Below, piece by piece: positions 1 through 56,092 of a stretch of 56,092 nt of DNA (positions within the stretch are counted from its first letter, which is position 1; each line of letters starts with the position of its first letter). The DNA is from a virus (taxonomy: Duplodnaviria; Caudoviricetes). The stretch lies in the IMG/VR virus record IMGVR_UViG_3300037264_000469, positions 1 through 56,092 of that record. One strand, 5' to 3'. A program made the position numbers and the translations under genes. The notes below the pieces were generated by a model. It was given only the letters and a program-made list of their open reading frames with translations. It had not been told where the DNA came from and ran no database searches.

Positions 1-44
1 ATATGTCCGTATATTTTTAAGTTTCCAACATTTACATTTTCCAT
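1..44 (-). CDS. 5' end of a gene running off the window (MENVNVGNLKIYGH...), possibly the next replication gene
   Basis: ATG at 44 with open frame to position 1; only 14 codons visible. Confidence 0.3.
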   Translation of the reverse strand, partial: MENVNVGNLKIYGH

Positions 45-122
45 AGTTTACGCTCTTTCTATTCGGTTATCCTACACTAACGACGTTCATACGTCCATTT
101 ATAATAAATCGTTTTTATATTC

Positions 123-151
123 TTGACTTTTTCTATTCGTTGTGCTATATA
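123..151 (+). promoter_or_regulatory. sigma70-type promoter
   Basis: TTGACT-N17-TATATA with TG just upstream of the -10, ahead of ORF 224. Confidence 0.6.
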
Positions 152-223
152 TTATACACAAGCTGAAATCCTTTGTATGAAAGGCCAAAGCTTTAGATCA
201 CTAACTAAAGAAAGGTATATATT

Positions 224-1036: not shown

Positions 1037-1062
1037 AACCAATCTATCTCTCTAGTTGGCTC

Positions 1063-1091
1063 AAATCCGGTTGATTATCAACCGGATTTTT
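1063..1091 (+). terminator. intrinsic terminator between convergent genes
   Basis: AAATCCGGTTGAT-T-ATCAACCGGATTT inverted repeat ending in a T run. Confidence 0.75.
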
Positions 1092-1108
1092 CCATTGCTA
1101 CCCTAGAT

Positions 1109-1249
1109 TTAGCTTGTTTCTGATAGTATTCCTCTGAAAAAGATTTTACCGTTTTTTGAACCTTCTTCAAGTTCTTTTTCGATTTGTTTTCGTAATTCTT
1201 GTTTCTCATGCCTCTTTTTAGATCTAGTTTCAATTTTTTTTCTATTCAT
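1109..1249 (-). CDS. small charged protein, 46 aa (MNRKKIETRSKKRHEKQELRKQIEKELEEG...), below the ORF-track cutoff
   Basis: ATG 1 nt after the nuclease stop codon; open frame to TAA at 1109. Confidence 0.45.
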   Translation of the reverse strand: MNRKKIETRSKKRHEKQELRKQIEKELEEGSKNGKIFFRGILSETS

Positions 1250-1250
1250 A

Positions 1251-10194: not shown

Positions 10195-10195
10195 A

Positions 10196-34004: not shown

Positions 34005-34682
34005 ATGAAGGTCATTTTTTGTATACCCGGAAATAACTTTTCTGGAAACTTTTTAAAATCTTGGACTTCTCTATTATTAAACTGTTTTAATAATAATATT
34101 GAGGTATTATTGTCTCAAAGATATAATCCCAACATTTATTATGTTCGATCTGAATGTCTTGGAGCAAACTTATTACGCGGAAAAAAACAAGTTCCATTTG
34201 ACAATAAAATAAATTATGATTATTTAATGTGGATTGATTCCGATCAAATATTTGCTCCAGAACATTTTTTCTCTTTATTATCCGATAATAAGGATATTGT
34301 AGGTGGATTATATCTAATGGAAGGAAGAACTCATTTTGCCTCAGTAAAAACGTGGGATGAGGATTATTTTAGAAAAAACGGAACATTTCAATATTTAACA
34401 CCAAAAGACCTTTCTAGTAATGAAGAATTAATAGAAGTTGTTTACAGTGGATTTGGATTCCTTTTAATAAAACGAGGCGTATTTGAGAGTTTAGAATATC
34501 CGTGGTTTGAACCTCAAACTATAAACTTTGGAAATGATATTGAAGATTTTGCGTCTGATGATATATCCTTTTGTATTAAAGCAAAAAAAGCAGGATATCA
34601 AATATTTGTAGATCCTAAAGTTATAATAGGACACGAAAAATCCGAAATTTTATACATTCCAAAACTTAACTTGGAAGCTTAA
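34005..34682 (+). CDS. GT-A fold (GT2-like) glycosyltransferase
   Basis: YDYLMWIDSD (DxD), GFGFLLIKRGVFE, YPWF, DDISFC, GH.K. Confidence 0.8.
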   Translation: MKVIFCIPGNNFSGNFLKSWTSLLLNCFNNNIEVLLSQRYNPNIYYVRSECLGANLLRGKKQVPFDNKINYDYLMWIDSDQIFAPEHFFSLLSDNKDIVGGLYLMEGRTHFASVKTWDEDYFRKNGTFQYLTPKDLSSNEELIEVVYSGFGFLLIKRGVFESLEYPWFEPQTINFGNDIEDFASDDISFCIKAKKAGYQIFVDPKVIIGHEKSEILYIPKLNLEA

Positions 34683-36982
34683 ATAATAAAAGAATTAACT
34701 AAAAGTGGTTGAATTGATTTTATAACTTTCTCCACGGTAATAGATTTGGAACAAAGATGGATATTTGGAGTTCCTTTATATTTAGGACAATATTCCCAAT
34801 CTTTATCAAAAACTTGTCCTTTCCAATTAAAACATCCTTGGCAAATATCTTCGGGAGGATTAATATTAATTTTATTAGAAAACTCACACCACGGATAACT
34901 AAATCCAGATATCATGGCAACTTTTTTATTCATTCCCCAAGCAATCCATGCAACCCCGGATGGTAACCCTATAAAAAATTCACAATGGAACAAATATTTC
35001 TGAACATCTGCTACAGATTCTACATTTGCATTAATAACATTAGATATATTTCTATCCGTTTTGCTAATATTAACAACCCTATATCCTCTCTCATTCAAAT
35101 ATAAAGCCAAGTTCTCCCACCCCTCGGGGTAATGCCAATATTTACATAAAGATGTAGATTCTGTAGCAATGCAAATATATTTTTCTACTATTGGTCTTTC
35201 TACATTTGGAATATGTAATAGAGGTCGAATTTCTTTATAATCTAACCCCAAAATATCAGAAGCTACTTTTTGTAAGGGCATTTCATTCCAAGGATGTGGC
35301 GAGGTAGATCTATTTTCGGTATTAAAACATCCAATTGAATATGACGCAAATATGTTATTGATTCCACTACCAGGAGATATAAATTCTAAGTCTGGATATC
35401 TTTCTTTAAATAAATCATTATGAAAAGTAGATACAATTACATGACAGTTGTGTTTTTTTCTAAATTCTTCTACATAAGGTATCCACGCAATATTATCTCC
35501 AAGAGCAGCACTATCAAATCCAATAAAAACTCTTTGCCCAGTCAAATTTATTTTATCGTCAAAAATACATTGATTATTAGTTATTATTCTTATTTTCCAA
35601 TCCAAATAATACTTGGTAAATGGTCGCGTCCATTGGCTTGGCTTTAAATTAGCCGCGTAAGTAATAAAATTATTTTTTTGATCTATGAATTCTACTCTAT
35701 AATCTTGATTTGGATCTCCTCCTTTAAGTTCTATATAAGGGCCATCAACATAATGGCGAATTATTTGAAGTGGAGGGTGTTTTTTAGCGAAAACTCTTTC
35801 TTTTGCTGGAGTTATTTCATTATAAAAAGATATCAATTTATTTTTAAAAAAAACATTTTCGTCTTTTTTCTTTAAAATCTCTTCATTATAAATAATTTCG
35901 TTTATTTTTCTTGCCACTGGGGGGGTTTTAACACAGTGAAACATAAAAACATCATCTTTATTTCTCGGAATATACGATTGAGAAGGATATCCTAAACTAA
36001 AATTATTTAAGTCGTTTAAATGTTCTTTTTGAGAATTGAAATAATAAAAAAACTTTACATCCTTTTCGGTGTGTATATTAATGGACGCAAATGTAAAGAG
36101 TGCTTTTGTTTTTCTTTTCCACAACAAACAATTCAATAATAATTCATCATGAAGATATTCTTCTAAACGTATTTTTGCTATTTCGTTAGATGTGCATATT
36201 TCGTGCCATTCTTCCAGTAGATCTTTATGAGTTATATTGTAATGAATTACATTAGTCATTCCATGAGGCATAAATTGATTTTCCGGAGTTCCTAATTTTA
36301 AATATTCTCTTACCTTTGGTCCGGGAATATATAAAGTTCCATTCATTATAATATAATCCCACGCACTTTTTTGTAAAATTAACATATTTTCTTGCGGAGG
36401 AGAATAATTTACAAACTTTTCTATATTACTTCTAACCTGAATATCGGAATCCATAAATAAACCATTCGCAATTCCATCTTTTAAAGATTGTAATAATATT
36501 TTTGGTTTAGTTAAGAGAACCGTATCATGGTCGGGGCATTTCTCGTTATTATCAAAATATACATTTTCTAAATTATGACTTTTGATTTTAGAATGATAAT
36601 TTATAGTGTAATGATAAATTGGTGTATTAGTATATTTTCTTATTCCATCTATTAAACAAGATGTTATTTCTTCAAATTTGTCATTTGATATTAAAACTAT
36701 AGACGTAGAACTTTTATTTTTATTAATTTGATCTTTATATATACATGTACTATTTTGAAAAATATCTATATAAAATTCTTCGGTATTCCAAGTATTAAAA
36801 AAATTATTATATATAAAAGAAAAAGTTTTTTCTTCTGTCGGTAAAAAATCACAAACCTGAAAAATTACTTCATGAAAATATATATTTTTTACAGATACAA
36901 AACATTCTTTTAAAAATTTATTTGATAAATTTTTAACGCTTATTCTATTTTCAAGAAGTTTAATATCGAAGATTTTTTGCAT
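34679..36982 (-). CDS. TibC/AAH-like (autotransporter O-heptosyltransferase, GT9-related) fused to an N-terminal GT-A domain
   Basis: LGDNIAW..Y..EFRKKH.C, K.W....GW, FFIGLPSG.AW.AW, ISGFS....EF, Cys4 motif CQGC..CP..C; N-terminal KP..L...MDSD. Confidence 0.82.
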   Translation of the reverse strand: MQKIFDIKLLENRISVKNLSNKFLKECFVSVKNIYFHEVIFQVCDFLPTEEKTFSFIYNNFFNTWNTEEFYIDIFQNSTCIYKDQINKNKSSTSIVLISNDKFEEITSCLIDGIRKYTNTPIYHYTINYHSKIKSHNLENVYFDNNEKCPDHDTVLLTKPKILLQSLKDGIANGLFMDSDIQVRSNIEKFVNYSPPQENMLILQKSAWDYIIMNGTLYIPGPKVREYLKLGTPENQFMPHGMTNVIHYNITHKDLLEEWHEICTSNEIAKIRLEEYLHDELLLNCLLWKRKTKALFTFASINIHTEKDVKFFYYFNSQKEHLNDLNNFSLGYPSQSYIPRNKDDVFMFHCVKTPPVARKINEIIYNEEILKKKDENVFFKNKLISFYNEITPAKERVFAKKHPPLQIIRHYVDGPYIELKGGDPNQDYRVEFIDQKNNFITYAANLKPSQWTRPFTKYYLDWKIRIITNNQCIFDDKINLTGQRVFIGFDSAALGDNIAWIPYVEEFRKKHNCHVIVSTFHNDLFKERYPDLEFISPGSGINNIFASYSIGCFNTENRSTSPHPWNEMPLQKVASDILGLDYKEIRPLLHIPNVERPIVEKYICIATESTSLCKYWHYPEGWENLALYLNERGYRVVNISKTDRNISNVINANVESVADVQKYLFHCEFFIGLPSGVAWIAWGMNKKVAMISGFSYPWCEFSNKININPPEDICQGCFNWKGQVFDKDWEYCPKYKGTPNIHLCSKSITVEKVIKSIQPLLVNSFII

Positions 36983-38543
36983 AAATTACTCCCATGTTAC
37001 TATCTAACATATTAACGTTAGTATCATATCCATAGTATGGCAACCATGTATAATCAAAATCATTTCTGGCTAATTTTTCTATTATTGATAAAACTTTATA
37101 ATTGGTATTATCATGAAATTCTATTATCATTTGTTTAATTCTACAAAGATTTTTATCAGAAATACTATCGAAAAACATATACTCCGCGCCCTCAATATCT
37201 ATTTTCATAAAATCCAGTATATTTTCTTTTATTTCATTTTCAAATAAAACATCTGGTGTTATAGTGGGAACCTTTATTGTATTTATTGTTTTTTGAGAAT
37301 CAATTATTGGAAATACGCTAGATACAACTGAAACATCTTCACATTGATAAAAATCTATTGAAGTCATACTGTCGTATACAGCATTAGGAATAATTTTTAC
37401 ATTTTTATAATGCCCTAGTATTTCGATCAACATACTTGTATTTCTGGGGTTGGCTTCCACCATATAAATTTTACAATTTGGATCTACTACGAAATTAATG
37501 CTTGCCATCCCAATATTTGTTCCAATATCCAAATAATTTTTTATATTTTTTAATTTATCATTTAAATTTACATCTTCATAAATTTTAAAATTAATTAAGG
37601 CATTGAAATCTTGTAGTTTTCTATGTTCTTTATATTTATTTCGCTTAAATTTATTACACAGTGGATGTTTTAAAGAAAAATCTTTAACATTGAAATTTTT
37701 TATTATTTTAGTTTTGGAATTTTTAGGAATAAATTCTACATAAAACCCATTTTGTAATTCGGAATTTATTGGTGGAAGTATCCACAAAGTTAATTTTGGG
37801 GGAATGACTCTATTTTTAAGGAAATAAACCTCGAGATCTGTGAAATAATCAAATATATAAATATCCCCATCAAACATAGCCTCAGACTCATTAGAAATAT
37901 AATATCTATTTTCTAATGCATTATATGAAACTTGAAGTCCAGAATAATCATATCCTACTTTATCTATTTTATTGTCACCAAAAAATTCTGCTTTATTTGG
38001 ATACGTAAATATTTTATGTTCTAGTTTTTTCTCTTTAATTGTTAAAACCCAGCACAATTCCAAAAGATTGCACTTGGCAAACATTTCTTCGATGGTCTTG
38101 TAAACCGGAAAGGTATCCAATAAGAAATTTACATTACAGAAAAAACTATTGGTTGCCAAAAAATATTCTCCCCACTGACAAGAAACAAAATCATATTTAT
38201 AATCTTTGATCCAGTCTTTAAAATGATGGATATCTACAATTTCACTATCATATGTTATTTTATATGCCCATTCTATTCCCACAAACCTTAAGTGTTCAAA
38301 GGACTGTCGTATTAGAACATTTTCTGCCACCCCATGAGAATATTTTCTATCATCAATTATATTTGACCTTTCGTATATAACATAATCACATTTTTCTTGA
38401 ATATCTTCTGGTATGATAGAATGAGAAGATAACACTAAATAATAATTTTCGGTAGAAATTTTATTTATCATATCACGAAGACATTCTAATCCTTCGTCTG
38501 AACTTTGATAATAAGTTATAACCCATCCTATTTTTTTATTCAT
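36960..38543 (-). CDS. FkbM-family methyltransferase with an N-terminal GT-like domain
   Basis: LDIGTNIG, VEANP, DFMKIDIEGAE, IIEFH. Confidence 0.82.
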   Translation of the reverse strand: MNKKIGWVITYYQSSDEGLECLRDMINKISTENYYLVLSSHSIIPEDIQEKCDYVIYERSNIIDDRKYSHGVAENVLIRQSFEHLRFVGIEWAYKITYDSEIVDIHHFKDWIKDYKYDFVSCQWGEYFLATNSFFCNVNFLLDTFPVYKTIEEMFAKCNLLELCWVLTIKEKKLEHKIFTYPNKAEFFGDNKIDKVGYDYSGLQVSYNALENRYYISNESEAMFDGDIYIFDYFTDLEVYFLKNRVIPPKLTLWILPPINSELQNGFYVEFIPKNSKTKIIKNFNVKDFSLKHPLCNKFKRNKYKEHRKLQDFNALINFKIYEDVNLNDKLKNIKNYLDIGTNIGMASINFVVDPNCKIYMVEANPRNTSMLIEILGHYKNVKIIPNAVYDSMTSIDFYQCEDVSVVSSVFPIIDSQKTINTIKVPTITPDVLFENEIKENILDFMKIDIEGAEYMFFDSISDKNLCRIKQMIIEFHDNTNYKVLSIIEKLARNDFDYTWLPYYGYDTNVNMLDSNMGVIYAKNLRY

Positions 38544-40174
38544 ACTCTTTCCCCACTATAATCAATTTTATCCAAAAGAGAATATCCAGAAAATTGCATA
38601 GTCAAAATCTCATCAAACACGCCGGTCTTATATTTGTTCAGATTGTTCATGAATAGTAAATCAGTTACATTCCATGGTGCAGTAGCATACATATTTTTAA
38701 ATAATTCATACGACCTTCGCGGGATCAAATAAGCATGAGCAGCAACAAAGTGACTTACAATCATATAATCGTTTTTTTTCTCTAAAATATTTTCGTTGTG
38801 ATGATGAACAAATGAAAACATTATTAAATCTTTATTATTATTTAAAATTTTACATGCTTTATTTATGTAATTAACAAATTGATCTGTGGTTATTCTTATA
38901 CCACAATCACACTCAAACATCATTATAAAATCATATTTATCTTCGGCAATAGCCTCAAGTAATCCATTCTTATGTGCTAAATAACATCCATAATGTCCCG
39001 GTGTTAATTTTCCACCGGGTTCCATAGAAATAAGGTCTGGGTTAATGCAATTTTCTCTGGGTGGAAGTTCCTTATATGGTTTATTAAAACACATTTTATA
39101 ATCTATTCCATAGTTTTTCAATTTTGATAAAGTTTGAATAGATTTCATTTCTCTTTTTGCAAATACATCCGTTAAAAGATGCCGAGCAGTTATTTTATAA
39201 TCTGCGGAAGATAAATCAATTTTAACATCATATGAAGAAGTTTCATATAATAAATATGATTTTATCAGTTTGATATTTTTATCAAAATCATCAGTTAGAA
39301 ATTGTATATTTTTGAATTTAGATAGTCCATCGCCATAAGTGCTTAAATTATATGCTAAAATAGGAATATTATAACTATTTGCCTCTACCAAGGTAATCGG
39401 TCTATTTTCAAATTTAGAAGTAAAAAGGAATAAATCACCTGCTATTAAGAATTTATAAACATCGTCTCTTTCATTCCACAATACACAATTATTTGGCATG
39501 TCATCTAATAGTGGTTTCCAATAAGCCTCAAAATTCAAAGCTCTATTTCCTATAAAATGAAATATTATTTTTTTATCTTTTAATTTTTTGGCATACTCAA
39601 AGATTTCTTTTTGATTTTTTCCAGGTGTAAAAAGACCTACGTTTATAACATGAAAATACGACGGATCTAAACCTAACTCATCTAAATATCTTCGTTTTAA
39701 ATCGGCAGTAGAATGTGGAAATTCTAATACATCAAAATCATTGGTTGTTTTTATGTATTGTTCCATGTTACATCCAGAAACAAACATGGTTTTATCCGCC
39801 ATAACCCATTTATCATTTAAATTGAACATAGTTCCATGAGTAGTTTCACAAATTTTGTAGGAACTATTTCCATACAATCTTTTTAAAATATCATCGGTAA
39901 TAAACGTTTCTGGATATTCTTCAAAATGAACTATTTCTGGATTTATTTTTTCTATTATTGAAAATATTTCTTCTTTATTAGAAGAAAGAGTAATAAGTTT
40001 TTCTCGTATTAATTCTCTTAATTTGTTTTTTTGAATAACATATGCATCGGCTATATTATCCCATTCTACGATATAAACATCAAACTCATTTACAAGACAT
40101 TGTACCTTTTTCAAAAGATATTGAGGCAATCCGCCGGTGGATAAATGAGGTGTAATAAATAAAATTTTCTTCAT
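38540..40174 (-). CDS. two-domain glycosyltransferase (GT4 plus GT25-like)
   Basis: PHLSTGG.PQ, KNQ, E..PI.L.EA; C-terminal GCYLAH, FECD, AHAYLI. Confidence 0.8.
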   Translation of the reverse strand: MKKILFITPHLSTGGLPQYLLKKVQCLVNEFDVYIVEWDNIADAYVIQKNKLRELIREKLITLSSNKEEIFSIIEKINPEIVHFEEYPETFITDDILKRLYGNSSYKICETTHGTMFNLNDKWVMADKTMFVSGCNMEQYIKTTNDFDVLEFPHSTADLKRRYLDELGLDPSYFHVINVGLFTPGKNQKEIFEYAKKLKDKKIIFHFIGNRALNFEAYWKPLLDDMPNNCVLWNERDDVYKFLIAGDLFLFTSKFENRPITLVEANSYNIPILAYNLSTYGDGLSKFKNIQFLTDDFDKNIKLIKSYLLYETSSYDVKIDLSSADYKITARHLLTDVFAKREMKSIQTLSKLKNYGIDYKMCFNKPYKELPPRENCINPDLISMEPGGKLTPGHYGCYLAHKNGLLEAIAEDKYDFIMMFECDCGIRITTDQFVNYINKACKILNNNKDLIMFSFVHHHNENILEKKNDYMIVSHFVAAHAYLIPRRSYELFKNMYATAPWNVTDLLFMNNLNKYKTGVFDEILTMQFSGYSLLDKIDYSGERV

Positions 40175-40223
40175 AACTTATTCGGTCATATATAGTATTT
40201 AAAACGGATTAAATCAACGAAAA

Positions 40224-41408
40224 TTATAATTTTTGACTTTTTATAATCCTTAAAAGGTTGTCTACAGTATTTTCTTCCGTAAGATGTGAAACTTTCTTAT
40301 TAGATAGCAACCCCTTTTCAATAATTTTGCTTTTATTATTATAACAATATCTAAAATTTTCTACAACACTTTTTTCATTAACTTTAGCCCAAAATCCTTC
40401 GGTAGGACCATACATTCCTAATGCTAATTCTTCTTCATAATCTATTGGAATTCCTACGTGTTCATCAAAAAATTCAGTTATTCCGCCATAATTTGCGGCC
40501 ATAACTGGTCTACCACACATCATTGCTTCGTGTTGCATAAGACCCCAACCTTCAGAATAAGACAAAGAGACGAAAACATCAAGACTTGCATAATAATCTG
40601 CCATTTTTTCTTCGGTATAATCATCAAATATTATTTTAATTCTGGAATCTGCATATCTCGGAAAGGATGAATACTGTTTGATATCAATTTTCACTCTTAA
40701 TTCTACATCTTTAATTTTTGGATTAAATGCTTTGCAAAAACATTCTATTGTATATTCCAATCTTTTTCTTGTTTGGTTTTGTGCTTCGCCACATCCAAAT
40801 ACCATTTTGGATTCAGTATGGGGAGGTCTATAAAAAAACGTATTTGGATTGATTCCAAGAGGTACAACATATATTGGAGAAGTTGTTCCGCTCTGTAAAA
40901 AATTAATACGATTCCAATTGGATGGAACTAATATTCTATTGTTGGGGTGGTTAAATCTGTTTACAACCATTGCGTCTAATTGAGAAGATTCCCACATCGT
41001 ATATATAAATTTTTTTCTTTTTAAATTGGAATTTAATAGGTGATTTTTTAATTGAAAATCCAGTGATAACGGGCAAACAACAAATTCATCCGTAGATAAC
41101 AATAAATCTCTTCCCACTGATCGAATTAAAGATGCATATTTTCCAACAACATTTGTATCAGTTGGAAGAATATATAAATCAACCCCCCTTAATAAAAAAT
41201 TTCTTATAAATACATCTATTATTTTACCATATCCAGAAATTGTATTAAGTGGAGATTTAAATAATAATATCACATCTTCTTCACTCGGTCGTTGTAACAT
41301 TTGTTGTGGCACGGGTGTACCCAAATTATTTTTACATAATTTATTTTTATGGGCAACAAACGATGAACTCAAAGCATTTGTAATATCAGATATAACATAT
41401 TCTATCAT
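40224..41408 (-). CDS. GT4-family glycosyltransferase
   Basis: SGYG, TMWE, VPS.WN, VVPLGI, EGWGL..HEAM.CG.PV. Confidence 0.88.
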   Translation of the reverse strand: MIEYVISDITNALSSSFVAHKNKLCKNNLGTPVPQQMLQRPSEEDVILLFKSPLNTISGYGKIIDVFIRNFLLRGVDLYILPTDTNVVGKYASLIRSVGRDLLLSTDEFVVCPLSLDFQLKNHLLNSNLKRKKFIYTMWESSQLDAMVVNRFNHPNNRILVPSNWNRINFLQSGTTSPIYVVPLGINPNTFFYRPPHTESKMVFGCGEAQNQTRKRLEYTIECFCKAFNPKIKDVELRVKIDIKQYSSFPRYADSRIKIIFDDYTEEKMADYYASLDVFVSLSYSEGWGLMQHEAMMCGRPVMAANYGGITEFFDEHVGIPIDYEEELALGMYGPTEGFWAKVNEKSVVENFRYCYNNKSKIIEKGLLSNKKVSHLTEENTVDNLLRIIKSQKL

Positions 41409-41411
41409 AAA

Positions 41412-41759
41412 TTATGGAGGATTACTTCCTGACGAAGAAAGATCATCTATATCGTCTGATGGAATAAATTCTGCTCCAATGGGAATATCATCAAACGAAT
41501 TATGATCTCTAATATATTCACGAATTGAAGGTTTTAATGTAGAAAATACAATTTGGCATACTTCTGTGACGCTTTTTCCAGAACAATCCGAAATTGGAAT
41601 ATGATGTTCAAAATATCGTATTTGTCTATTTGAAAGTATAACATCAAATCCTATTATTCGACGAAGATTATGATCTTCGTATCGTTTTAATATTAATTTA
41701 TAATTTTGTGGCATATGTTTGTTAATTAAATAGTTGAACGTATCGCGTTCCGACTCCAC
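41412..41759 (-). CDS. hypothetical protein
   Basis: ORF filling the gap between the fibre gene and GT4; true start may be ATG at ~41717. Confidence 0.55.
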
Positions 41760-44700: not shown

Positions 44701-45696
44701 ATTCAATAAACTTATAGATCCAGAATTTCTTAATTGAGTACCGTTTGGAATACGAATTCTTACATCACCCGCATCAATATTATTTATATTGATTTCTAAA
44801 CTTGCTGTTCCTGTTGTACGATTAACCAATGATAAAAGTGCTGATGGTGTAGTTGTATTTATACCAACTCTGTTTCCGTCATCATAAACTAAACTTGCTG
44901 AATTTAATGTATTATTATTCCATCTAGGAACGTAATTATTAGTTCCATTTCCAATAAAAGATGCGGTTAATGAATAACTAGCAGATAATGACAGGCTAGA
45001 AGAATCTACAGATTTAGCACTTATTCTTTCAATAGGAATTGATGAAGTAATGTAATAATCTAGCCACTGATAAAAATCAAAGTCAATGCCATTATTTAAA
45101 GCATCAAAACTTGCTGTAGTATAACCAAAGGTGAAATCGCGAAATTTAACGGTTGGTGTGTCCCAATTTGAATTTACTCCACTAGAATTACCAATGTAAA
45201 TTGTTGGTCGACCAAAACTACTAGTTCCAAAACTTGCTGTTAACTTATGCTCATTGTTTTTATTTGCTATAGAAATTGCGGAAAGAATATTCCAATTTCT
45301 ATTACTTACTGTCTCAGTTACCACTCCACTTAAATATATTGTGGAAGCCTTATAAGAATCGTTGAGAGTTAAAAAATCCAACCATCCACTAAAATAATAT
45401 CCTGATGGTATATTAGGAAGTTGAATTCTTAAAAATCCAGACATTGACGCACCATTTCCAGCTAAAAAACTATTTTTCGGAATTGTTATGTATGATCCGC
45501 GTCCTATTATTGGACTGGCACTTGCACTTTCTGGATTTTTAGCTGCTCCGCCAATTCCAATATCTCTATACAACGATAATGAAGCCGACAGATTAAGCGA
45601 CGATGATATAGCATTTTCAATTGTTATTGCCGAATTATCTATAAAGGTCGCATCACCCCTTACTATTAGACCATTTTTTACTACAAATTCATTCAT
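41722..45696 (-). CDS. virion fibre/appendage protein with three repeated domains and a short GTS collagen stretch
   Basis: N-terminal NEFVVKNGL; three LRIQLP...TASFG...GRP.IYI modules; VGI.T..P fibre motifs; Gly-X-Y run. Confidence 0.75.
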
Positions 45697-45720
45697 AATT
45701 TATTCTTTCATTTTCCAGAA

Positions 45721-48700
45721 TTACATTATTTTTATTGATGCTTTAACTGCCCATCCAGCAGTGTTACTTGACCTAGTAACTAACCCCACATCCCCCGGAC
45801 CTACCGTATTAAGTTTAATTGACATAGATAAAGCATTGGTATTACCAATTTCAGCGGTGGTTACTTCATTGTATTCAATATTATCATCATTCCAATTTGC
45901 TACCATCATACCGGCTCTACTATTAGAACCCGATGCCACGCTGTATTCAAAGTAACCAGATCTATAAGAACCAGTGTTAGTATAAAACATTACAAAATCT
46001 AAGTTAGGTGAAGGTATTATTATACTTGCATAATCAATCTTTATATCACCAAAATTAAAATTATTATTGGTAAAATGACTTGATGATACCGCATAACTCG
46101 AAGATAAAGAACTACTTGCCCACGAGGCCGACACAGCATATATACTTTGAGTAGAATATATTGACACTTTGGATTTTTCACTCCACGAAGATGTTCCATG
46201 AAATGATCCAGTTCCAAAAATAGATGCTGATATTGCCCCTTGAACATGAAATTTTGCTTGTGGACTTGATGTACCAATACCTAAGTTTCCACCTAGGATA
46301 TACTGGTTATCAGAATGTCCTAATGCCACAATTGTATTGCTACCTGAAACAATTATGAACTTACTGGTAGGATAAAATCTAAATTGGTTTGGATTATTGT
46401 AAACATTTATCACCATATTACTGTGGCTTACAAATGGCGTAATGAATGCATAGGTTATTGAACCTAATCCACCATAAGAACCAAATATTGAAAATGACTG
46501 TGATAATGGATTTGCTATTCCTACTTGACCTACTGAATAATATCTTGCCCATCCTCCATCACCTAGCGTTGCAATTTGAACGCCATAAGGTGCATGAGAA
46601 GAAGATAGAACTAGCCCACCGTATGTAATATGTGGTGCGGTTGTAGAACCAAAATCTCTAATTGCACCAATACCAAGTTGATTATCGGTTACCCATCTTG
46701 CAGTATAATTCGTACTACCACCCAAGACTTCATTAGATATATCAGAATAACTAGATGTTACTGCGTAGCTTCCTGTAAATGTATAACTTGCCGTTATAGT
46801 ATATGACGAACTTCTAGCATATGATGCGGTTATGGCGTATGAAGCAGATTCATATGGTAAATAAGCTTCTATTGGAAGCGTATCACTATTTATTTCTTCA
46901 ACCCGTGGTCCCCAAAAATAAACTACACTGCTGGTTGTTGTATTATAATATTCAGATACTCTCTGTGTTTGAACATTACCTGTGCCTATTTTATATTCTA
47001 CACCAGATGTTCTGTCAAATGAACCGGATTGAGTATATACTCCGCTTTTTAATAAGGATGATCCAGTTGAATCCGTGGCCCATAAATAACCTACAAATAA
47101 TAACCACTGATCTTTCGGGAGCGACGATGCATTTCTTTGTAAGAAGAACGGATTGCCATTAACCGTATTATTTAAATTTAATGTATTAGATGTAGAAGCA
47201 CCTAAAAAGATAGTTCCGTTATTTGGTGGTGTATTACTTAAAATTTTAACCCAAACAGAATATCTATGAGATTTACTAGGAATAGCAGGTAAAGTAGCAT
47301 CCCATCCGCCATTAGCAGCGAAATCTCCTGCTGATGTTACTTTCCAAATTAATGATCGTTGTCCATATGGATCAACATCATAACTTCTTGTGTTTTCATT
47401 ATTAGCACCAACTTGGATAAACACTGTTTCGACCATTGGTCCACTTCCACTATACCACTGAGTATCTGGAACCAAATTTCTGGCAACATATCCCGTTTTA
47501 TCAACAAGATATTGAGAAGAAGAAAGCGTAGTGGTTACTGTAACTTTATCACTATTACCATAAATTTCCGACGTTGAACTTAATTTATTATTGTTGACCC
47601 ATTTAATATAATAATCATTAGTTCCTTCTCCAACATAAGATGCAGTTAATGCATAAGATGCAGATATACAACAAAGCGCACAACTTGCAAAACTGGAAGT
47701 TTTAGAATATGATGAACTTAATGTATATGATGAACTTAATGTATATGATGAACTTAATGTATATGATGCTGATAAGGCATATGAGGCCGATAAGGCATAT
47801 GAGGCCGATAAGGCATTTAACGCATAAGAAGCAGTTCTGTTTGTATGAACTTCACCGCTAACATCAACAGTTAGTAAATCAATGTCAGATAATTGTTGTA
47901 TTAATCCTGTTAACCTTAGTGGATCAGAAGAGGCAGATATATGTAATTTGTTAGTGGGTGTTGTTGTATTTATTCCTACATTTCCATCTATACCTTTAAT
48001 AGTCATCCATGTATTGTAATCAGTCAAGCTGGATGAAATAAAATCAAATTTTAGATTAAAATCATTGCTTGCTGCTGAAATTTGATCAGTAGATACCCGC
48101 ATTCTTTCGAACGATCCATATTTAAATGCTAATCTTGCATCATTTCCAGTAAATCCAGAAGCTAGATATGGAGATTCTATAATCATTCCTACGGAACCGC
48201 TTTGAGAAAATATCCTCATTCCACTTCCACTTACATCTAAACTATATGAAGGAGCAACTTGTCCTGTGCTTATTCCTATAAATCCTCCGTTTGGATTTAA
48301 TATCAAAGGAAATCTTGAAGATAGATCTATCTGGCTAGTAAATTGAAGCCATGCCCCCAATCCACTATGCATAGATCCGATGTCTAAAACTCCATTGGAA
48401 TCGGTATGTCTTAGTCTCAATATCGATCCGGTTTGGATTTTTCCTGATGCCGCAGGCCACGCACTTGGAAGTGTAGAAACTACATCTAAAGATGAAGATG
48501 GATTAGTTTGATTTACTCCAATAAAATTATTAGTTGGGTATTCCGTCATTATGGAATCGCCAATAGTAGTTGGAGAAGTAAATTTTACTATTCTATTTGT
48601 GGTTCCACTTATTGCTACTGATGTTCCACTTGTACCAGACGAACCGCTTACTCCTGATGTTCCGCTTGTACCAGATGTGCCTTTAGTTCCACTTGTACCA

Positions 48701-51700
48701 GACGAACCACTTACTCCTGATGTTCCGCTTGTACCAGATGTGCCTTTAGTTCCACTTGTACCTGAAGAACCACTCACTCCTGATGTTCCAGATGTACCTT
48801 CTGTTCCACTTGTTCCCGATGTTCCACTTGTTCCTGAAGAACCACTCACTCCAGATGTACCACTTGTACCAGATGTGCCTTTAGTTCCACTAGTTCCCGA
48901 AGAACCACTCACTCCTGATGTTCCAGATGTACCTGAAGTACCATCCATTCCGGATGTACCACTTGTACCAGATGTGCCTTTAGTTCCACTAGTTCCCGAA
49001 GAACCACTCACTCCTGATGTTCCAGATGTACCTGAAGTACCATCCATTCCGGATGTACCCCCTGTACCACTTGTACCAGATGTGCCTTTAGTTCCACTAG
49101 TTCCCGAAGAACCACTCACTCCTGATGTTCCAGATGTACCTTCCGTTCCACTTGTTCCCGATGTACCTTTTGTTCCTGATGTACCCGAAGTACCTCTTGT
49201 TCCACTTGTACCCGACGAACCACTTATTCCTGATGTTCCACTCGTTCCACTTGTACCTTCTGTTCCACTGGTGCCTGATGAACCACTTACTCCACTTGTT
49301 CCTGATGTTCCTTTTGTTCCACTTGTACCCGACGAACCACTTATTCCTGATGTTCCACTAGTTCCCGATGTACCTTCTGTTCCACTAGTTCCTGATGTAC
49401 CTTCTGTTCCACTGGTGCCTGATGATCCACTTACTCCACTTGTTCCTGATGTTCCTCTTGTTCCACTTGTACCGCTTGTTCCAGTCGTTCCTGATGTTCC
49501 TTTTGTCCCACTTGTACCTGATGTACCACTTGGAGTTATAGCATACGATGCTGTTATTGCATGACTCGATGTTAATGCATATGATGCAGATGTTGATCCT
49601 GATGCATATGATGCCGATACAACAAATGTTAGAGATTGAGTTACATCGAAGAATTTAAAATAACTTCCACTTAAAGTATACGAGGCTGATAATGCTTCCT
49701 TTGCAAATAATGTATAGGATGCCGTTTTACTTGAGTGAACAACCCCACTAACATCAATAGTTAATAAATCAATATCTGATGATTCTATTACATTTTGTAA
49801 TCGTAATGGATTAGCGGCAGAAGATACATGTAATCTGTTGGTTGGAAGTATCGTGCCAATTCCTACATCTACTCCATCTTCATAAATTAAACTCGTAGGA
49901 GTTAAGGTATTGTTTTGCCATTTTGGAATGTAATTATCAACACCTTCTCCGATATATGATGCACTCAATGCATATGAAGAACTTAGTGAAAACGAAGAAC
50001 TTAGTGAAAATGAAGCGGTTAATGAAAATGAAGAACTTAATGAAAATGATGTGGTTATTGGATAAGTAGATCCGGATACAATAAATGCACTTGTTCCTGA
50101 TGTACCTCTTGTCCCACTTGTTCCTGATGTTCCTCTTGTTCCACTAGTTCCTGAAGAACCACTTACTCCAGACGTTCCAGAAGTACCAGCAGTTCCGGAT
50201 GTTCCACTTGTTCCTGAAGTTCCGTTTGTTCCACTTGTTCCTGAAGAACCACTCACTCCAGATGTTCCAGATGTGCCTTTAGTTCCACTTGTTCCAGATG
50301 AACCACTTATTCCTGATGTTCCACTAGTTCCCGATGTACCTTCTGTTCCACTGGTGCCTGATGATCCACTTACTCCACTTGTTCCTGATGTTCCTCTTGT
50401 TCCACTAGTTCCTGAAGAACCACTTACTCCAGACGTTCCAGAAGTACCAGCAGTTCCGTATGTTCCACTTGTCCCAGAAGTACCTTTTGTTCCACTAGTT
50501 CCTGAAGAACCACTTACTCCAGACGTTCCAGAAGTACCAGCAGTTCCGGATGTTCCACTTGTTCCTGATGATCCACTTATGCCAGATGTACCTGAAGTAC
50601 CAGCTGTTCCCGAAGTTCCTGTTGTACCGCTAGTTCCCGATGATCCACTCACTCCTGATGTTCCCGAAGTACCAGCAGTTCCTTTTGTTCCGCTCGTTCC
50701 AGATGAACCACTTACTCCAGATGTACCGGATGTACCAGCAGTTCCTGATGTTCCTTTTGTTCCGCTCGTTCCGCTTGGAGTTATAGCATATGAAGCACTT
50801 ATTGAATATGATGCCGTTTTATTTGTATGAACAACTCCATTGACATCAACAGTTAATAAATTAATATCGTTTAGTTCTCTTAACCCAGCCAGTTTCAGTG
50901 GATCTTGCGATGAAGACACATATAATTTATGTAATGATTCGGTTGATCCAATTGATAAATTTGACCTGATATAAGATGGACTTTCGTTGATAGAATATAT
51001 TGCCCATGGATTATCTACTGTTCCCGGCTCAAACTTATTTGTATCAATAAAAATACCATAACTATTTTCTATATATGATGCACTCTGACAGAATGGAGTT
51101 ATGTAAACTCCATAAGATCGTGAGATACTACCAGTAATCCATTCATCTTCTGAACTTAATCCAAATTGAACTCTAATTCCATATAATCCCTCAAGCCTTC
51201 CTTTATGATCAGTTCCTAGTGTAGATTGAACATTTAATGCAATATAATGTCCACTATTAGTGATAAAATTATTAACATATGTATTACCTAAATTGTTTTC
51301 ATATGACGACCAATAATAAGTTCCATCTATAGTAGCTCTGAAAGCCGGAATCGTTCTAATACTAGAAACATCTCGATCAAATACAAGACCCTGAACATCC
51401 AAAATTGCATCTTCTACATCAAACGAATTTATTCCAACAAACTGACCATGATTGCTTATGGCAGAAACTTGAGTCAATTTATTATTAAGCCAGTAAGGTA
51501 CAAAATAATCTGATCCTTCTCCAATATAAGATGCGGTTAATGCGTAAGATGCAGATAGAGCATTCAATGCCCAAGATGATGTAATTGGATATAATGATCC
51601 AGTTGTGAAATTAGCACTTATTCCACTTGTGCCAGATGAACCAGCCGTACCAGATGTACCTTTTGTTCCACTAGTTCCTGACGTACCTGTTGTTCCACTC

Positions 51701-54700
51701 GTACCCGATGTACCTTTTGTTCCACTAGTTCCAGATGATCCACTTACTCCCGATGTTCCACTTGTTCCTGATGTACCCTCTGTACCACTTGTTCCACCTG
51801 TACCACTTGTACCACTTGTTCCCTCTATTCCGGGAATTCCGGGATTACCATCTACTCCAGACGAACCAGCCGTTCCACTTGTTCCGGATGTACCCTTTGT
51901 TCCTGAAGTTCCGCTAGTTCCAGATGTTCCCCTTGTACCACTTGTACCTTCTGTGCCACTTGTACCAGAAGTACCTTCTGTGCCACTTGTACCAGAAGTA
52001 CCTTCTGTGCCACTTGTACCTGATGATCCACTTACTCCTGATGTTCCCGATGTACCTTTTGTTCCAGATGAACCAGCAGTTCCCGATGTACCTTTTGTTC
52101 CTGATGTTCCAGATGTTCCACTTGTACCCGATGTTCCAGATGTTCCTTCCGTTCCACTTGTACCTGATGTTCCTTCTGTTCCACTTGTACCCGATGAACC
52201 ACTCACTCCAGATGTTCCTGAAGTACCCGATGAACCTCTCGTACCACTTGTACCCGACGAACCACTCACTCCTGATGTTCCTGATGTTCCACTTGTTCCA
52301 GAAGTACCAAAAGTTCCCGATGTTCCACTTGTTCCAGAAGAACCACTTACTCCAGACGTTCCAGAAGTACCAAAAGTTCCCGATGTTCCACTTGTCCCAG
52401 AAGTACCTTTTGTTCCACTCGTACCTGAAGAACCGCTTACTCCGGATGTTCCAGACGTTCCGCTTGAGCCACTTACTCCAGATGTTCCGGATGTTCCTCT
52501 TGTTCCTGCTGTTCCACTTGTTCCCGATGTACCTTCTGTCCCACTTGTTCCCGATGTACCTTCTGTCCCACTTGTTCCCGATGTACCGCTTGTTCCAGAA
52601 GAACCACTCACTCCAGATGTACCACTTGTTCCTCTCGTACCACTCGTTCCGCTTGTACCACTCGTTCCGCTTGTTCCTTTCGTACCACTCGTTCCGCTCG
52701 GAGTTATAGCATACGATGCCGTTGTTGCATGACTTGAAGTTATTGCATGAGACGCCGACAATGCGAATGACGAACTTAGTGAAAATGAAGCAGTTTTATT
52801 TGTATGAACAACTCCATTGACATCAACGGTTAATAAATTAATATCGTTTAGTTCTCTTAACCCAGATAGTTTTAATGGATCTTGTGATGAAGACACATAT
52901 AATCTATGTAATGACTCGGTTGATCCAATTGATAAATTTTCTCTTAAATAAGACGGACTTTCATTAATAGAATATAATGCCCATGACTGACTTACAGATC
53001 CACTTGTAAATTCATTTACATTAATAAAAATTCCAAAGCTATTTTGAATATAATATGCATTATTGCAATATGGAGTTATATAAATTCCATAAGCATAATC
53101 AGCACTTCCCGTAACATATGAAGTAGTAGAATTTAATCCAAATTGAACTCTAATTCCATATATTTCTGAAATATTTCCTCTATGATCATTTCCTAATGTA
53201 GCTTGAACATCTACCCCCATATAATATCCACTACTCGTAATAGAACTACTAACGTAAATGTTTCCTGGGTTAATGGTATATGCTTTCCAATAATAAGTTC
53301 CATTGGTATCAGCTATAAAGGCTGGAGTTGTTTTAATAGCATCGGAATCCTGATTGTATTCTATTCCTCTAACTTCTAAGAAAGTAGTCGAGTCAAACGC
53401 ATTTATTCCTACATACTGATTGTGAGTACTTATAGATGAAGTTTGAGTCAGTCTATTATTAAGCCAGTGTGGAACGAAATAATCGGTTCCTTCACCAATA
53501 TAAGATGCAGTTAATGCATATGATGCACTTTTGGCCCAAGATGCTGTTATAGGATATAATGATCCGGTTGTGAAATTAGCACTTATTCCACTTGTTCCTG
53601 ATGAACCACTTATTCCACTTGTCCCAGACGTTCCCGATGTTCCTTTCGTTCCGCTTGTGCCAGATGTACCCGATGTTCCTTTTGTTCCACTTGTACCAGA
53701 CGTACCACTTGGAGTTATAGCATACGATGCTGTTATTGCATGACTTGATGTTAATGCATATGATGCAGAGGTTGATCCTGATGCATATGATGCCGATACA
53801 ACGAATGTTAGAGATTGAGTTACATCATATAATTTAAAATAACTTCCACTTAAAGTGTACGAGGCTGATAATGCTTCCTTTGCAAATAATGCATAAGATG
53901 CTGTTCTACTTGAATGAACAACTCCACTAACATCAATGGTCAATAAATCAATATCTGATGATTCTATTACATTTTGTAATCGTAGTGGATCAACAGTGGC
54001 AGATACATGTAATCTGTTGGTTGGAAGTATCGTGCCAATTCCTACATCTACTCCATCTTCATAAATTAAACTTGTAGGAGTTAAGGTGTTGTTTTGCCAT
54101 TTTGGAACGTAATTATCAACCCCTTCTCCTATATATGATGCACTCAATGCATATGAAGCGGATAATGCCCATGATGACGTAATTGGATATGATGACCCGG
54201 TTGTAAAATTAGCACTTATTCCACTTGTTCCGGATGAACCTGCTGTTCCACTTGTACCTGATGTTCCTCTTGTTCCACTCGTTCCAGATGATCCACTCAC
54301 TCCAGATGTTCCTGCGGTTCCTGCTGTTCCACTTGTACCAGATGTTCCCGATGAACCTCTTGTGCCACTTGTACCAGATGATCCACTTACTCCTGATGTT
54401 CCCGATGTTCCTGATGTGCCACTTGTGCCCGATGAACCAGCCGTTCCGCTTGTACCAGACGTACCTTCTGTTCCACTTGTTCCAGACGTGCCTTCTGTTC
54501 CACTTGTTCCAGACGTGCCTTCTGCACCACTTGTACCAGATGTACCTCTTGTGCCACTTGTGCCCGATGATCCACTTATTCCAGATGTTCCTGATGTACC
54601 TTTTGTACCCGATGTACCAGATGTTCCTGAAGAACCACTTACTCCAGATGTTCCGCTTATACCGGATGAACCAGCAGTTCCACTTGTTCCTGCCGTTCCA

Positions 54701-56091
54701 CTTGTCCCCGATGAACCACTTACTCCAGATGTTCCGCTTATACCAGATGAACCAGCAGTTCCACTTGTTCCAGATGTTCCTCTCGTTCCACTTGTACCAC
54801 TTGATCCACTTATTCCTGCTGTTCCACTTGTACCACTTGATCCACTTATTCCTGCTGTTCCCGAAGTCCCTTCGGTTCCACTTGTTCCAGATGAACCACT
54901 TACTCCAGATGTGCCGGATGTACCAGCGGTTCCCGATGTTCCTTTTGTTCCGCTTGTTCCAGATGAACCACTTATTCCTGAAGTACCCGATGTACCTCTT
55001 GTTCCTGATGTACCTGAAGTACCTTCTGTTCCTGATGTACCTGAAGTACCTTCTGTTCCTGAAGTACCCGAAGTACCTTCTGTTCCACTTGTTCCTGATG
55101 ATCCACTTACTCCGGATGTTCCTGATGATCCACTAATACCAGATGTTCCTGATGTTCCTTTCGTTCCGCTTGTGCCCGATGTTCCTTTCGTTCCACTTGT
55201 TCCGGATGTACCGTCAATTCCACTTGTACCAGATGTGCCTTCTGTACCACTTGTGCCAGATGAACCGCTTACTCCGGACGTTCCGCTTGTTCCACTTGAT
55301 CCACTGATTCCAGATGTTCCCGAAGTACCAAAAGTACCTGATGTACCTGAAGTACCTCTTGTTCCTGATGTACCTGAAGTACCTTCTGTTCCTGATGTTC
55401 CTTCCGTTCCTGATGTACCTGAAGTTCCCTCCTGTCCACTTGTACCAGATGTTCCTTTAGTTCCGCTTGTACCAGATGTTCCCGAAGTTCCTCTTGTTCC
55501 ACTTGTTCCGCTTGATCCACTTATTCCTGACGTTCCTGATGTTCCACTTGTACCAGATGTGCCTTCTGTACCACTTGTGCCAGATGAACCGCTTACTCCG
55601 GACGTTCCGCTTGTTCCACTTGATCCACTGATTCCAGATGTTCCCGAAGTACCAAAAGTACCTGATGTTCCCTTTGTTCCACTGGTTCCCGATGTTCCCT
55701 TTGTTCCACTGGTTCCCGATGTTCCCTCTGTTCCACTGGTTCCCGATGTTCCCTCTGTTCCACTGGTTCCCGATGTTCCCTCTGTTCCACTCGTACCTGA
55801 TGATCCATTCGCTCCCGATGTTCCTGAAGTTCCACTTGATCCACTGATTCCAGATGTTCCCGAAGTACCTGATGTGCCTTTTGTACCACTTGTACCCGAT
55901 GATCCACTTATTCCAGATGTTCCTGATGTTCCTTTCGTTCCACTTGATCCACTAATTCCTGATGTTCCCGATGTTCCCGATGTACCCGCCGAACCATCCG
56001 TTCCACTTGTACCTGAAGTACCTTCTGTTCCCGACGTTCCTTCCGCTCCCGATGTTCCACTTGTGCCCGAAGTACCTTTTGTTCCTGATGT
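45721..56091 (-). CDS. giant collagen-like (Gly-Thr-Ser)n fibre protein, >=3456 aa, 5' end outside the window
   Basis: The track start at 54300 is an internal GTG; the same frame reads GTS repeats at 54301 and at 56091 and no in-frame stop was noticed; VGIGT..P fibre motifs and SASYA repeats. Confidence 0.85.
47708..47815. repeat. 18-bp tandem repeats encoding LSASYA / LSSSYT
   Basis: TATGATGAACTTAATGTA x3 and GATAAGGCATATGAGGCC-type units. Confidence 0.8.
48617..49533. repeat. Gly-Thr-Ser coding repeat tract (9-bp degenerate periodicity)
   Basis: Continuous Gly-X-Y with synonymous codon variation. Confidence 0.9.
50090..50778. repeat. Gly-Thr-Ser coding repeat tract
   Basis: Continuous Gly-X-Y with synonymous codon variation. 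Confidence 0.9.
51620..52702. repeat. Gly-Thr-Ser coding repeat tract containing a classical collagen segment [13 protein letters not shown]
   Basis: Continuous Gly-X-Y with synonymous codon variation. Confidence 0.9.
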
Positions 56092-56092
56092 A
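54218..56092. repeat. longest Gly-Thr-Ser tract, >600 codons, open at the window edge
   Basis: Continuous Gly-X-Y with synonymous codon variation. Confidence 0.9.

Follow-up and report, generated by a model that had tools for sequence, protein, structure and literature searches.

The DNA considered here is a viral contig of 56,092 nucleotides (IMG/VR record IMGVR_UViG_3300037264_000469, positions 1 to 56,092), called the window throughout, in which two genes for collagen-like fibres are followed by a block of glycosyltransferase (GT) genes that includes a relative of the protein O-glycosyltransferase TibC. We consider it rather probable that this cassette serves the cytoplasmic O-glycosylation of virion fibres in a T4-like jumbo phage. 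From the genes themselves, their family and fold assignments, the conservation of catalytic residues and a statistical and phylogenetic association of the enzyme with Gly-X-Y proteins, all observed directly, we infer the glycosylation, its acceptor and donor, the order of its steps and its benefit. The layout described in an initial annotation, which was made from the DNA letters alone, is present in full: the fibre genes, four co-oriented enzyme genes and the adjoining tail sheath gene are on the minus strand, with a convergent gene opposite them (Table 1).

Association of TibC-like genes with Gly-X-Y proteins

The initial annotation had proposed genomic co-occurrence as a test, and the result is positive both ways. 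A locus search with the single protein gave two viral loci and was replaced by an alignment-based profile scan of IMG/VR, in which at least 593 viral stretches encode TibC relatives; 80 loci were kept. A neighbour was counted when an open reading frame (ORF) with at least 36 residues of Gly-X-Y runs lay in the flank, which was taken up to 10 kb. Such an ORF is found in 46 of the 80 phage loci and in 27 of the 34 that have full flanks, compared with none of 80 random viral loci chosen around an arbitrary 14-mer and comprising half as much DNA (Fisher p 2.6e-18). Since none of the random loci has a Gly-X-Y ORF, a chance origin of the Gly-X-Y content of the window fibres is excluded. The median distance from the TibC-like gene to the Gly-X-Y ORF is 1367 bp, with 20 of the 46 within 1 kb, and the two genes occur in three different relative arrangements. 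Nearly all of these neighbours are free of proline and rich in serine and threonine. With the enzymes clustered at 90%, 70% and 60% identity, the association is seen in 36 of 64, 28 of 40 and 18 of 23 clusters, respectively. For the reverse test, contigs were sampled by a degenerate DNA pattern for six Gly-Thr-Ser (GTS) triplets, (GTS)6, and 75 of 80 were examined whole. A TibC-like gene above the curated cut-off is present in 20 of the 75 (7 of 38 plus 13 of 37) and in none of 50 random contigs (p 2e-5).

The pairing of enzyme and repeat is also found in bacterial chromosomes. A prokaryote scan with one genome per species returned 119 relatives, and of the 80 loci kept, 16 have an ORF of GTS or Gly-Ser-Ser (GSS) triplets near the TibC-like gene. 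We built a tree of 159 distinct enzyme domains, with the TibC domains recovered by a hidden Markov model. It divides into a classical branch (support 72), made up of Burkholderiaceae, Acetobacteraceae, Selenomonadales and one phage, and a phage-type side on which all 16 of the bacterial GTS/GSS loci fall. None of the 57 rows of the classical branch has a Gly-X-Y neighbour, as against 57 of the 102 rows on the phage-type side. In the one classical-branch locus checked, from Acetobacter fallax (L369), an AIDA-domain protein adjoins the TibC-like gene. Its stop-to-stop frame of 2712 residues (1423-9558) lies upstream of the TibC-like gene, which it slightly overlaps, and combines an AIDA stalk with Hint and GT4-like domains, an unusual architecture for an adhesin.

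A metagenome-assembled genome of Methylococcales (L334, 9974-12041 of a 2.67-Mb contig) has a stand-alone TibC-like enzyme of 371 residues among lgt, thyA, ppa, lpxC and ftsZ. Its gene is convergent with that of a 293-residue signal-peptide protein, which has about 39 GTS triplets and ends in a small domain. The pair of enzyme and small (GTS)n protein recurs in four further loci (L327, L332, L335 and L340), with a conserved domain of about 130 residues, and in L335, it is an ortholog of the 293-residue protein that adjoins the TibC-like gene. Because a methanotroph ortholog with fewer triplets fell below our threshold, the co-occurrence counts are conservative. No other glycan genes stand beside this minimal pair. 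It mirrors tibC-tibA and is the strongest single argument for the triplet repeat as the acceptor.

On the phage side, the closest relative (L074) has the same gene order as the window, and in L003 and the Microcystis phage Mel-JY01, the collagen genes are followed by GT/TibC/methyltransferase fusions. In L003, a viral contig of 120 kb, three GTS collagen genes lie directly upstream of the gene for an 898-residue protein (8984-11680) that has the TibC-like domain in its middle; judged by eye, the order is GT4, TibC-like and a class I methyltransferase-like C-terminus. Domain shuffling around a TibC core appears to be common, in open frames of 360 to 1470 residues. The record of Mel-JY01 (L004, PP395634) holds on its plus strand a 1016-residue open frame (2-3049) that runs off the record start and has 597 residues of GTS/GSS collagen repeats. 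This frame overlaps two minus-strand coding sequences labelled 'hypothetical protein' (1..651 and 739..2298), and a collagen-like fibre gene has probably been annotated on the wrong strand in this deposit. A 1226-residue protein of the same phage, labelled 'methyltransferase FkbM', ends in a TibC-like domain, and the phage also has a gene labelled 'structural protein'. Our literature search found no paper on this phage.

The TibC-like enzyme, the fibres and the rest of the block

The initial annotation called the last enzyme of the block TibC/AAH-like, and this is correct at the level of the curated family model. The C-terminal half of the 767-residue fusion matches TIGR04414 with 268.9 bits over profile positions 25-372 of 374 (curated equivalog cut-off 200; 271 bits in another search). 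Against the TibC entry 4rap of the Protein Data Bank (PDB), it gives an E of 3.9e-43 over TibC residues 37-379, an alignment that takes in most of the barrel region 1-97. The match to the lipopolysaccharide (LPS) family GT9 reaches 18.2 bits, below its cut-off of 22. PMC4358343 assigns the role of catalytic base to Asp-110 of TibC and the holding of the beta-phosphate to Thr-226 and Lys-230; Trp-305 contacts the heptose, Pro-300 sets stereoselectivity and four cysteines hold iron. In the window, D496, T610, K614, P674 and W679 align with TibC D110, T226, K230, P300 and W305, and C714, C717, C732 and C744 align with the iron-finger residues Cys-339, 342, 358 and 370. Across 15 relatives, the catalytic Asp, the Lys, the Trp and the four iron-finger cysteines are invariant, and the Thr is nearly so. 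As judged from these matches, the protein is a member of the family of bacterial autotransporter heptosyltransferases (BAHT), in a branch of the tree distinct from the enzymes of Burkholderiaceae and Acetobacteraceae.

The likeness to TibC-TibA and Aah-AIDA-I of Escherichia coli (TIGR04414; PDB 4RAP/4RB4; PMC4358343) extends from the homologous enzyme family, with its catalytic, donor and cysteine residues kept, to the setting, a soluble, cytoplasmic enzyme encoded beside a long, repetitive, Ser-rich surface protein. The differences are that the neighbour in the phage is a collagen-like Gly-Thr-Ser fibre and not a beta-helical autotransporter, of which there is none in the window, and that the enzyme is fused behind another domain within a multi-transferase operon and has Arg-286 replaced. 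TibC itself has an N-terminal beta-barrel and a beta-hairpin thumb and forms a dodecameric ring.

The visible part of fibre 1 has five (GTS)n segments alternating with globular or Ser-rich modules of 169-295 residues, and then a non-collagen C-terminus of 965 residues. The Gly-X-Y runs are 624, 42, 360, 228 and 303 residues long, and their sum of 1557 residues would span about 445 nm if triple-helical. The 519 triplets are dominated by GTS (289), followed by GSS (58), GVS (32), GTK (31) and GTE (28). Thr occupies X in 396 of them and Ser occupies Y in 400; charged residues (E, K, R, D) are at Y in 84, and proline occurs in 2. Trimeric collagen helices usually have the help of Pro/Hyp or of charge pairs. 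Fibre 2 is made of three repeated non-collagen modules, a short collagen-like segment and a C-terminal knob of 104 residues. Its Gly-X-Y runs, near the C-terminus, amount to 54 + 24 = 78 residues, which brings both fibres together to 1635. The Pfam Collagen model (PF01391, cut-off 27.2) matches fibre 1 with 641.7 bits in 18 stretches and fibre 2 with 41.5 bits. Fibre 2 matches PHROG tail-fibre families solely by way of its collagen stretch, and its first 1100 residues have no relatives among the fetched loci. The fibres also hold long Ser-rich stretches outside the collagen, for example, repeats of the SASYAL type. The long open frames on the opposite strand over the arrays are by-products of the repeat. 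In DNA and RNA-library runs, Logan contigs in the interval 42000-49500 join the fibre 2 array to the fibre 1 arrays (for example, 42084 to 48794), and read depth is several-fold higher within the collagen arrays. The array repeats are collapsed or are common to other genomes in the sample, and array lengths in the assembly are unreliable.

Downstream of the fibres on the same strand come a 115-residue ORF, a GT4 enzyme, a GT4 and GT25-like fusion, a GT-A and FkbM fusion and the TibC fusion, in that order, and adjacent genes of the fibre and enzyme block are separated by overlaps or short gaps. None of the six block proteins has a hydrophobic segment (maximum KD19 1.38), and the block contains no gene for a lipid-carrier transferase, flippase, polymerase or export. 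The 115-residue ORF has no family match in the Pfam, NCBIfam and PHROG scans and no relative among the fetched loci. The steadiest phage partner of the TibC-like gene is the GT4 domain of the 544-residue fusion, with relatives in 66 of the 85 loci of the TibC set; the counts for the GT25-like domain, the sheath, FkbM and the 394-residue GT4 are 38, 20, 11 and 6. Two labels in the initial annotation, 'GT25-like' for the second half of the 544-residue protein and 'GT2-like' for the convergent gene, correspond to matches below the curated cut-offs. The convergent gene itself is real, as its match to phrog_1574 attests. Its match to the Pfam GT2 models is weak, at an E of about 0.1, and its sequence indicates that it probably encodes a GT-A glycosyltransferase. 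The gene extends over the stop codon of the TibC fusion.

The N-terminal domain of the 527-residue fusion belongs to no Pfam family. An AlphaFold2 (AF2) model of it from 35 sequences has a predicted local distance difference test (pLDDT) of 92.3 and a predicted TM-score (pTM) of 0.86, and in this model, residues 1-201 have the GT-A glycosyltransferase fold, with VIA-align Z scores of 13.6-12.4 to many GT-A enzymes, all tied. Foldseek matched it to LH3, glycogenin and COLGALT1 at E values of about 1e-6. A collagen-specific glycosyltransferase, as LH3 and COLGALT1 at the top of the Foldseek matches might imply, was considered and rejected, since VIA-align ties them with many unrelated GT-A enzymes. 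The FkbM domain of the same protein scores 55.4 bits with PF05050 (cut-off 22.7) and 58.8 bits with TIGR01444 (cut-off 37.7). The N-terminal half of the 767-residue fusion has no Pfam or PHROG family and one homolog of near-full length. Its DxD motif, D178/D180, is invariant (n=3 sequences) and suggests a GT-A or GT8-like transferase, and a language-model comparison, which found 176 shared features (score 0.92), points to a cluster of phage GT8 proteins. The AF2 model of this half, from 3 sequences, has a pLDDT of 51 and is too poor to use.

Table 1. Features of the fibre and enzyme cassette and the adjoining sheath gene, in window coordinates (aa, amino acids; SAM, S-adenosylmethionine).
Feature	Coordinates	Strand	Basis
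Fibre gene 1, 3456 aa visible, 5' end cut by the window edge	45721..56091	-	translation, Pfam Collagen
Fibre 1, collagen-like segments	54214-56085, 53581-53706, 51616-52695, 50089-50772, 48619-49527	-	segment map
Fibre gene 2, 1324 aa	41722..45696	-	Pfam Collagen, 41.5 bits
Fibre 2, collagen-like segment, aa 1140-1220	42037-42279	-	segment map
Small ORF between fibres and enzymes, 115 aa	41412..41759	-	open reading frame
GT4 (GT-B fold) glycosyltransferase, 394 aa	40224..41408	-	PF13692 47.2 bits, PF00534 41.4 bits
Fusion of GT4 and GT25-like domains, 544 aa	38540..40174	-	Pfam
544-aa fusion, N-terminal GT4 domain	39125..40174	-	PF00534 40.4 bits; second GT4 model 29.7 bits
544-aa fusion, C-terminal GT25-like domain, aa 351-544	38540..39124	-	weak PF01755, 20.2 bits, below cut-off 24
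Fusion of GT-A and FkbM domains, 527 aa	36960..38543	-	AF2 model, PF05050
527-aa fusion, N-terminal GT-A-fold domain, aa 1-201	37941..38543	-	AF2 model; beta-rich linker, aa ~203-284, follows
527-aa fusion, FkbM-family SAM methyltransferase domain, aa 337-497	37053..37535	-	PF05050, TIGR01444
Fusion of N-terminal half and TibC-like half, 767 aa	34679..36982	-	TIGR04414 on C-terminal half
767-aa fusion, N-terminal half, aa 1-408	35758..36982	-	DxD motif D178/D180
767-aa fusion, TibC/Aah-type (BAHT) domain, aa 424-758	34709..35713	-	TIGR04414, PDB 4rap
Convergent gene, 227 aa	33999..34682	+	DSD motif; phrog_1574 210.6 bits; phrog_34859 glycosyltransferase E 2e-7
Tail sheath gene, 1067 aa	30361..33564	-	PF04984 43.9 bits, PF17482 40.3 bits

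Proposed pathway and competing explanations

In the pathway that we propose, the fibre genes and the enzyme genes downstream of them would be expressed together late in infection. The TibC-like domain would put the first sugar on Ser hydroxyls of the nascent fibre proteins in the cytoplasm; this sugar would probably be heptose or a related sugar activated by a nucleoside diphosphate, and the likeliest acceptors would be the Y-position serines of the Gly-Thr-Ser triplets. Starting from this first sugar, the two GT4 domains, the GT25-like, GT-A and DxD domains and perhaps the convergent 227-residue gene product could build a short glycan, in which the FkbM domain could methylate a sugar. The resulting fibres, whose collagen-like segments add up to about 0.45 micrometre and have globular modules between them, would be sugar-coated. 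Such a coat could make the proline-free triple helix more stable or stiffer, shield it from proteolysis or modulate adhesion. Modification of protein fits better than modification of LPS or DNA because the enzymes are soluble, are not accompanied by lipid-carrier or export genes and lie within a late structural module.

The glyco-collagen interpretation put forward in the initial annotation is borne out in part, namely, by the family call, by the co-occurrence, to which the bacterial pairing can be added, and by the soluble enzymes in a late structural module. The heptose donor is doubtful, and the analogy that it drew to Riftia is inexact. Riftia cuticle collagen has its glycosylated Thr in the Y position. 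Fibre 1 has Thr at X and Ser at Y, and TibC acts on Ser, not Thr (part of PMC4358343). A bolder version, which we hold tentatively and regard as doubtful, is that this distinct and widespread branch of TibC/Aah enzymes gave up beta-helical autotransporters as substrates in favour of proline-free Gly-Ser/Thr-Ser collagen. Hyperglycosylation would then load the Y-position serines with sugars, and these, not hydroxyproline, would hold sub-micrometre triple-helical fibres together. The same proposal has the switched branch mainly in jumbo phages of water and sediment and also in the two-gene pairs of Methylococcales. ADP-heptose may not be the donor of this branch, given the loss of the adenine-reading Arg in most members.

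Several observations weigh against fibre glycosylation as laid out above, and the first group concerns the donor. Arg-286 of TibC reads the adenine N1 of ADP-heptose and is highly conserved and required for activity, as stated in PMC4358343. The equivalent position in the window is V660. In the alignment column, from which 10 of the 159 rows were left out for want of the anchor motif, the classical branch has R in 54 of 54 rows. On the phage-type side, R is found in 14 of 95 rows, and its place is taken by V in 36, by T in 26 and by I in 10. Since this adenine contact is mostly lost in the phage-type branch and is a valine here, ADP-heptose as the donor is doubtful. No sugar-nucleotide or heptose-activation genes were seen in the 56-kb window. 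In some relatives, a PfkB kinase with heptose-7-phosphate kinase as its best match (about 101 bits, cut-off 345) stands beside the TibC-like gene. Such heptose-kinase-like proteins occur in 13 of 49 TibC contigs, always below that curated cut-off, and are absent from the contig of the closest relative and from three genomes rated 100% complete; we give the kinase little weight because the model also matches 12 of 14 control genomes. A cytidylyltransferase-like protein follows the TibC-like gene in some relatives. The label of heptose-1-phosphate adenylyltransferase was tried for the TibC-adjacent nucleotidyltransferase of relatives and dropped, as this protein matches nicotinamide mononucleotide adenylyltransferases weakly (about 35 bits).

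The other observations mostly concern the pairing and the acceptor. The pairing of TibC-like and Gly-X-Y genes is not obligatory in either direction: a Gly-X-Y ORF is missing from 34 of the 80 TibC loci, 7 of which are among the 34 with full flanks, and 55 of the 75 (GTS)6 contigs have no TibC-like gene, as is the case for three of the five estimated to be at least 90% complete. Neighbour labels are clustered on the enzyme tree (30 changes versus a shuffled mean of 47), so part of the association is shared ancestry. Eight collagen-free loci have the GT4-fusion and TibC genes behind a giant ORF of about 1265 to 2463 residues that is not collagen-like, and in the one checked (L045), this ORF has a Gp53-like tail-fibre end. 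The substrate described for BAHT enzymes in PMC4358343 is Ser in the strand-loop-strand repeats of beta-helical autotransporters, not collagen. Finally, the Logan contigs assembled from the likely source run are interrupted within the collagen arrays and join one repeat to another, so the exact repeat numbers depend on the assembly. As a separate observation on L045, its giant fibre protein (3-6953, 2317 residues) contains an intein splicing domain at residues 1876-2013. The gene is directly upstream of a fusion of GT4, methyltransferase and GT25-like (20.5 bits) domains and of the TibC-like gene.

The virion might be glycosylated on something other than collagen, either regions of the fibres that are rich in Ser and beta-structured (the SASYAL-type stretches and the globular modules, for instance) or other structural proteins. 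The beta-helix repeats modified by TibC and Aah (PMC4358343, in part) lend themselves to this explanation, as do the long Ser-rich non-collagen stretches of the window fibres and the collagen-free relatives that keep a GT4 fusion and TibC behind giant ORFs, one of which was checked as a tail-fibre protein. We nevertheless find it unlikely. The triplets are the sole conspicuous feature of the 293-residue Methylococcales protein, Gly-X-Y ORFs that are mostly Ser/Thr-rich and Pro-poor are the common neighbour in 18 of the 23 TibC clusters, and the giant fibre of L045 has no sequence similarity to the fibres of the window. The main competing explanation, which we judge quite unlikely, is that the block is an auxiliary host-takeover module. 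Its GTs and methyltransferase would then remodel the LPS, the capsule or a different surface glycan of the host, for instance, as a bar to superinfection by other phages, and its adjacency to the fibres would be incidental. That is how clusters of a kinase, a nucleotidyltransferase and multiple GTs in jumbo cyanophages have been read in print (PMC7824862, section 3.4.10), and phage 'heptosyltransferases' have likewise been interpreted as LPS genes (parts of PMC10747093 and PMC8066274). It would also suit the weak NCBIfam matches of the GT4 domains, which are to lipid- or glycolipid-acting enzymes, and the many (GTS)6 contigs without TibC. However, the heptosyltransferase-like domain falls in the protein-modifying BAHT family and below the cut-off for GT9, and it has the iron finger that is specific to BAHT enzymes. 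The block also lacks membrane segments and genes for a lipid-carrier transferase, flippase or polymerase, the association with Gly-X-Y proteins is strong relative to random controls, and there are no further glycan genes beside the minimal pair in bacteria.

Phage T4 glucosylates its DNA. The window comes from a T4-like phage, and its transferases might act on phage DNA as the T4 glucosyltransferases do, or the genes might be inactive remnants. Both are very improbable: no domain matches a DNA glycosyltransferase family, the frames are all intact with catalytic residues kept, and the module is conserved across many phages.

Fibre glycosylation by phage enzymes, as we favour it, has partial parallels elsewhere. 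The collagen-like filament BclA of the Bacillus anthracis exosporium reportedly bears O-linked oligosaccharides on its triplets that end in a modified, methylated sugar. Its triplets are rich in proline and it belongs to a spore surface, not a virion; to our knowledge, its glycosylation enzymes are not relatives of BAHT. Mycobacteriophages are said to encode transferases beside structural genes that glycosylate capsid and tail-tube proteins. We know of no collagen-like substrate or BAHT enzyme among them, and the enzyme families and hosts differ. Two viral cases are described in PMC9614988. In Mimivirus, a virus of eukaryotes, the enzyme L230 glycosylates a collagen-like structural protein of the virus, L71, by hydroxylating Lys and glucosylating the hydroxylysine as in animal collagen; the window has no hydroxylase, and the proposed acceptor is Ser. 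In Chlorovirus PBCV-1, A064R combines two GT domains and a sugar O-methyltransferase in one protein that decorates the capsid glycan (PMC9614988). Those glycans are N-linked on the capsid protein, and the window has an FkbM-family methyltransferase. Domain 1 of A64R (2p72) aligns with the GT-A domain of the 527-residue fusion at a Z of 13.2 and a root-mean-square deviation of 3.2 over 171 aligned residues, a Z value tied with many GT-A enzymes that reflects the shared fold only.

Our literature searches, with supplementary files outside their scope, found no paper that describes the pairing of TibC or a heptosyltransferase with collagen in phages or cyanophages. The window contributes three findings: the loss of Arg-286 across the branch, a GT-A fold for the domain fused to FkbM and the split of the enzyme tree by type of neighbour. 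Until now, this family of enzymes has been linked with the virulence adhesins of bacteria. If fibre glycosylation is correct, many uncultured large phages make their own glycoproteins, as the enzyme is encoded by at least 593 viral stretches, and auxiliary genes in viromes called 'LPS heptosyltransferase' would have to be reinterpreted. It would also provide a genetic handle on the folding of proline-free collagen and a compact pair of enzyme and repeat for making glycosylated collagen-like materials. Were the bolder substrate switch true as well, 'glyco-collagen' would be a new structural material of viruses and bacteria. Cultured systems exist in the Microcystis phage Mel-JY01 and in methanotrophs of the Methylomicrobium group.

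Phage context and neighbouring genes

The window, a linear viral contig from IMG/VR, is estimated to be 16% complete. It has a GC content of about 32%, and almost all of its genes are on the minus strand. Going by its gene content, it is a fragment of a T4-like jumbo phage, because it encodes gp32-like and RecA/UvsX-like proteins, a T4 baseplate protein, a gp19 tail tube and a tail sheath. The sheath gene is the marker that places the enzyme block within the virion structural module, and with gp19 and the baseplate genes, it defines the position of the block as a T4-like late structural module. A near-identity DNA search with the window found no match to deposited phages. The likely source run and one RNA-library run, which contain the window, are both labelled as sediment metagenome.

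The octamer TATAAATA, which resembles the T4 late promoter, occurs 28 times in the whole window versus 12.9 expected. Sites are found just upstream of several minus-strand structural genes (for example, 33653, 28452 and 22078), including one at 33653-33660 on the minus strand just upstream of the tail sheath gene. Another minus-strand site, at 41853-41860, is 94 nt upstream of the 115-residue ORF. Since most of the minus-strand sites near the cassette fall within genes, the enrichment is a mere hint of late transcription. A scan for terminator-like sites on the minus strand found none in 33000-46500. The RNA-library run, from another study, has near-identical short contigs across the sheath, GT and fibre genes, covering 28 of 30 bins. 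These contigs are weak support, being unable to show transcription, strand or level.

Three other genes in the structural region were seen in passing. Two encode DUF7487 proteins, at 28433-30244 on the minus strand and 17936-19441 on the plus strand. The former adjoins the sheath gene among the structural genes and matches PHROGs of homing/HNH endonucleases with 392.6 bits, and from their sequences, both are likely mobile endonuclease insertions in the structural module. The third encodes an 870-residue protein (19447-22059, minus strand) that begins with a nucleotidyltransferase domain of the NTP_transf_2 or Pol-beta-like type.

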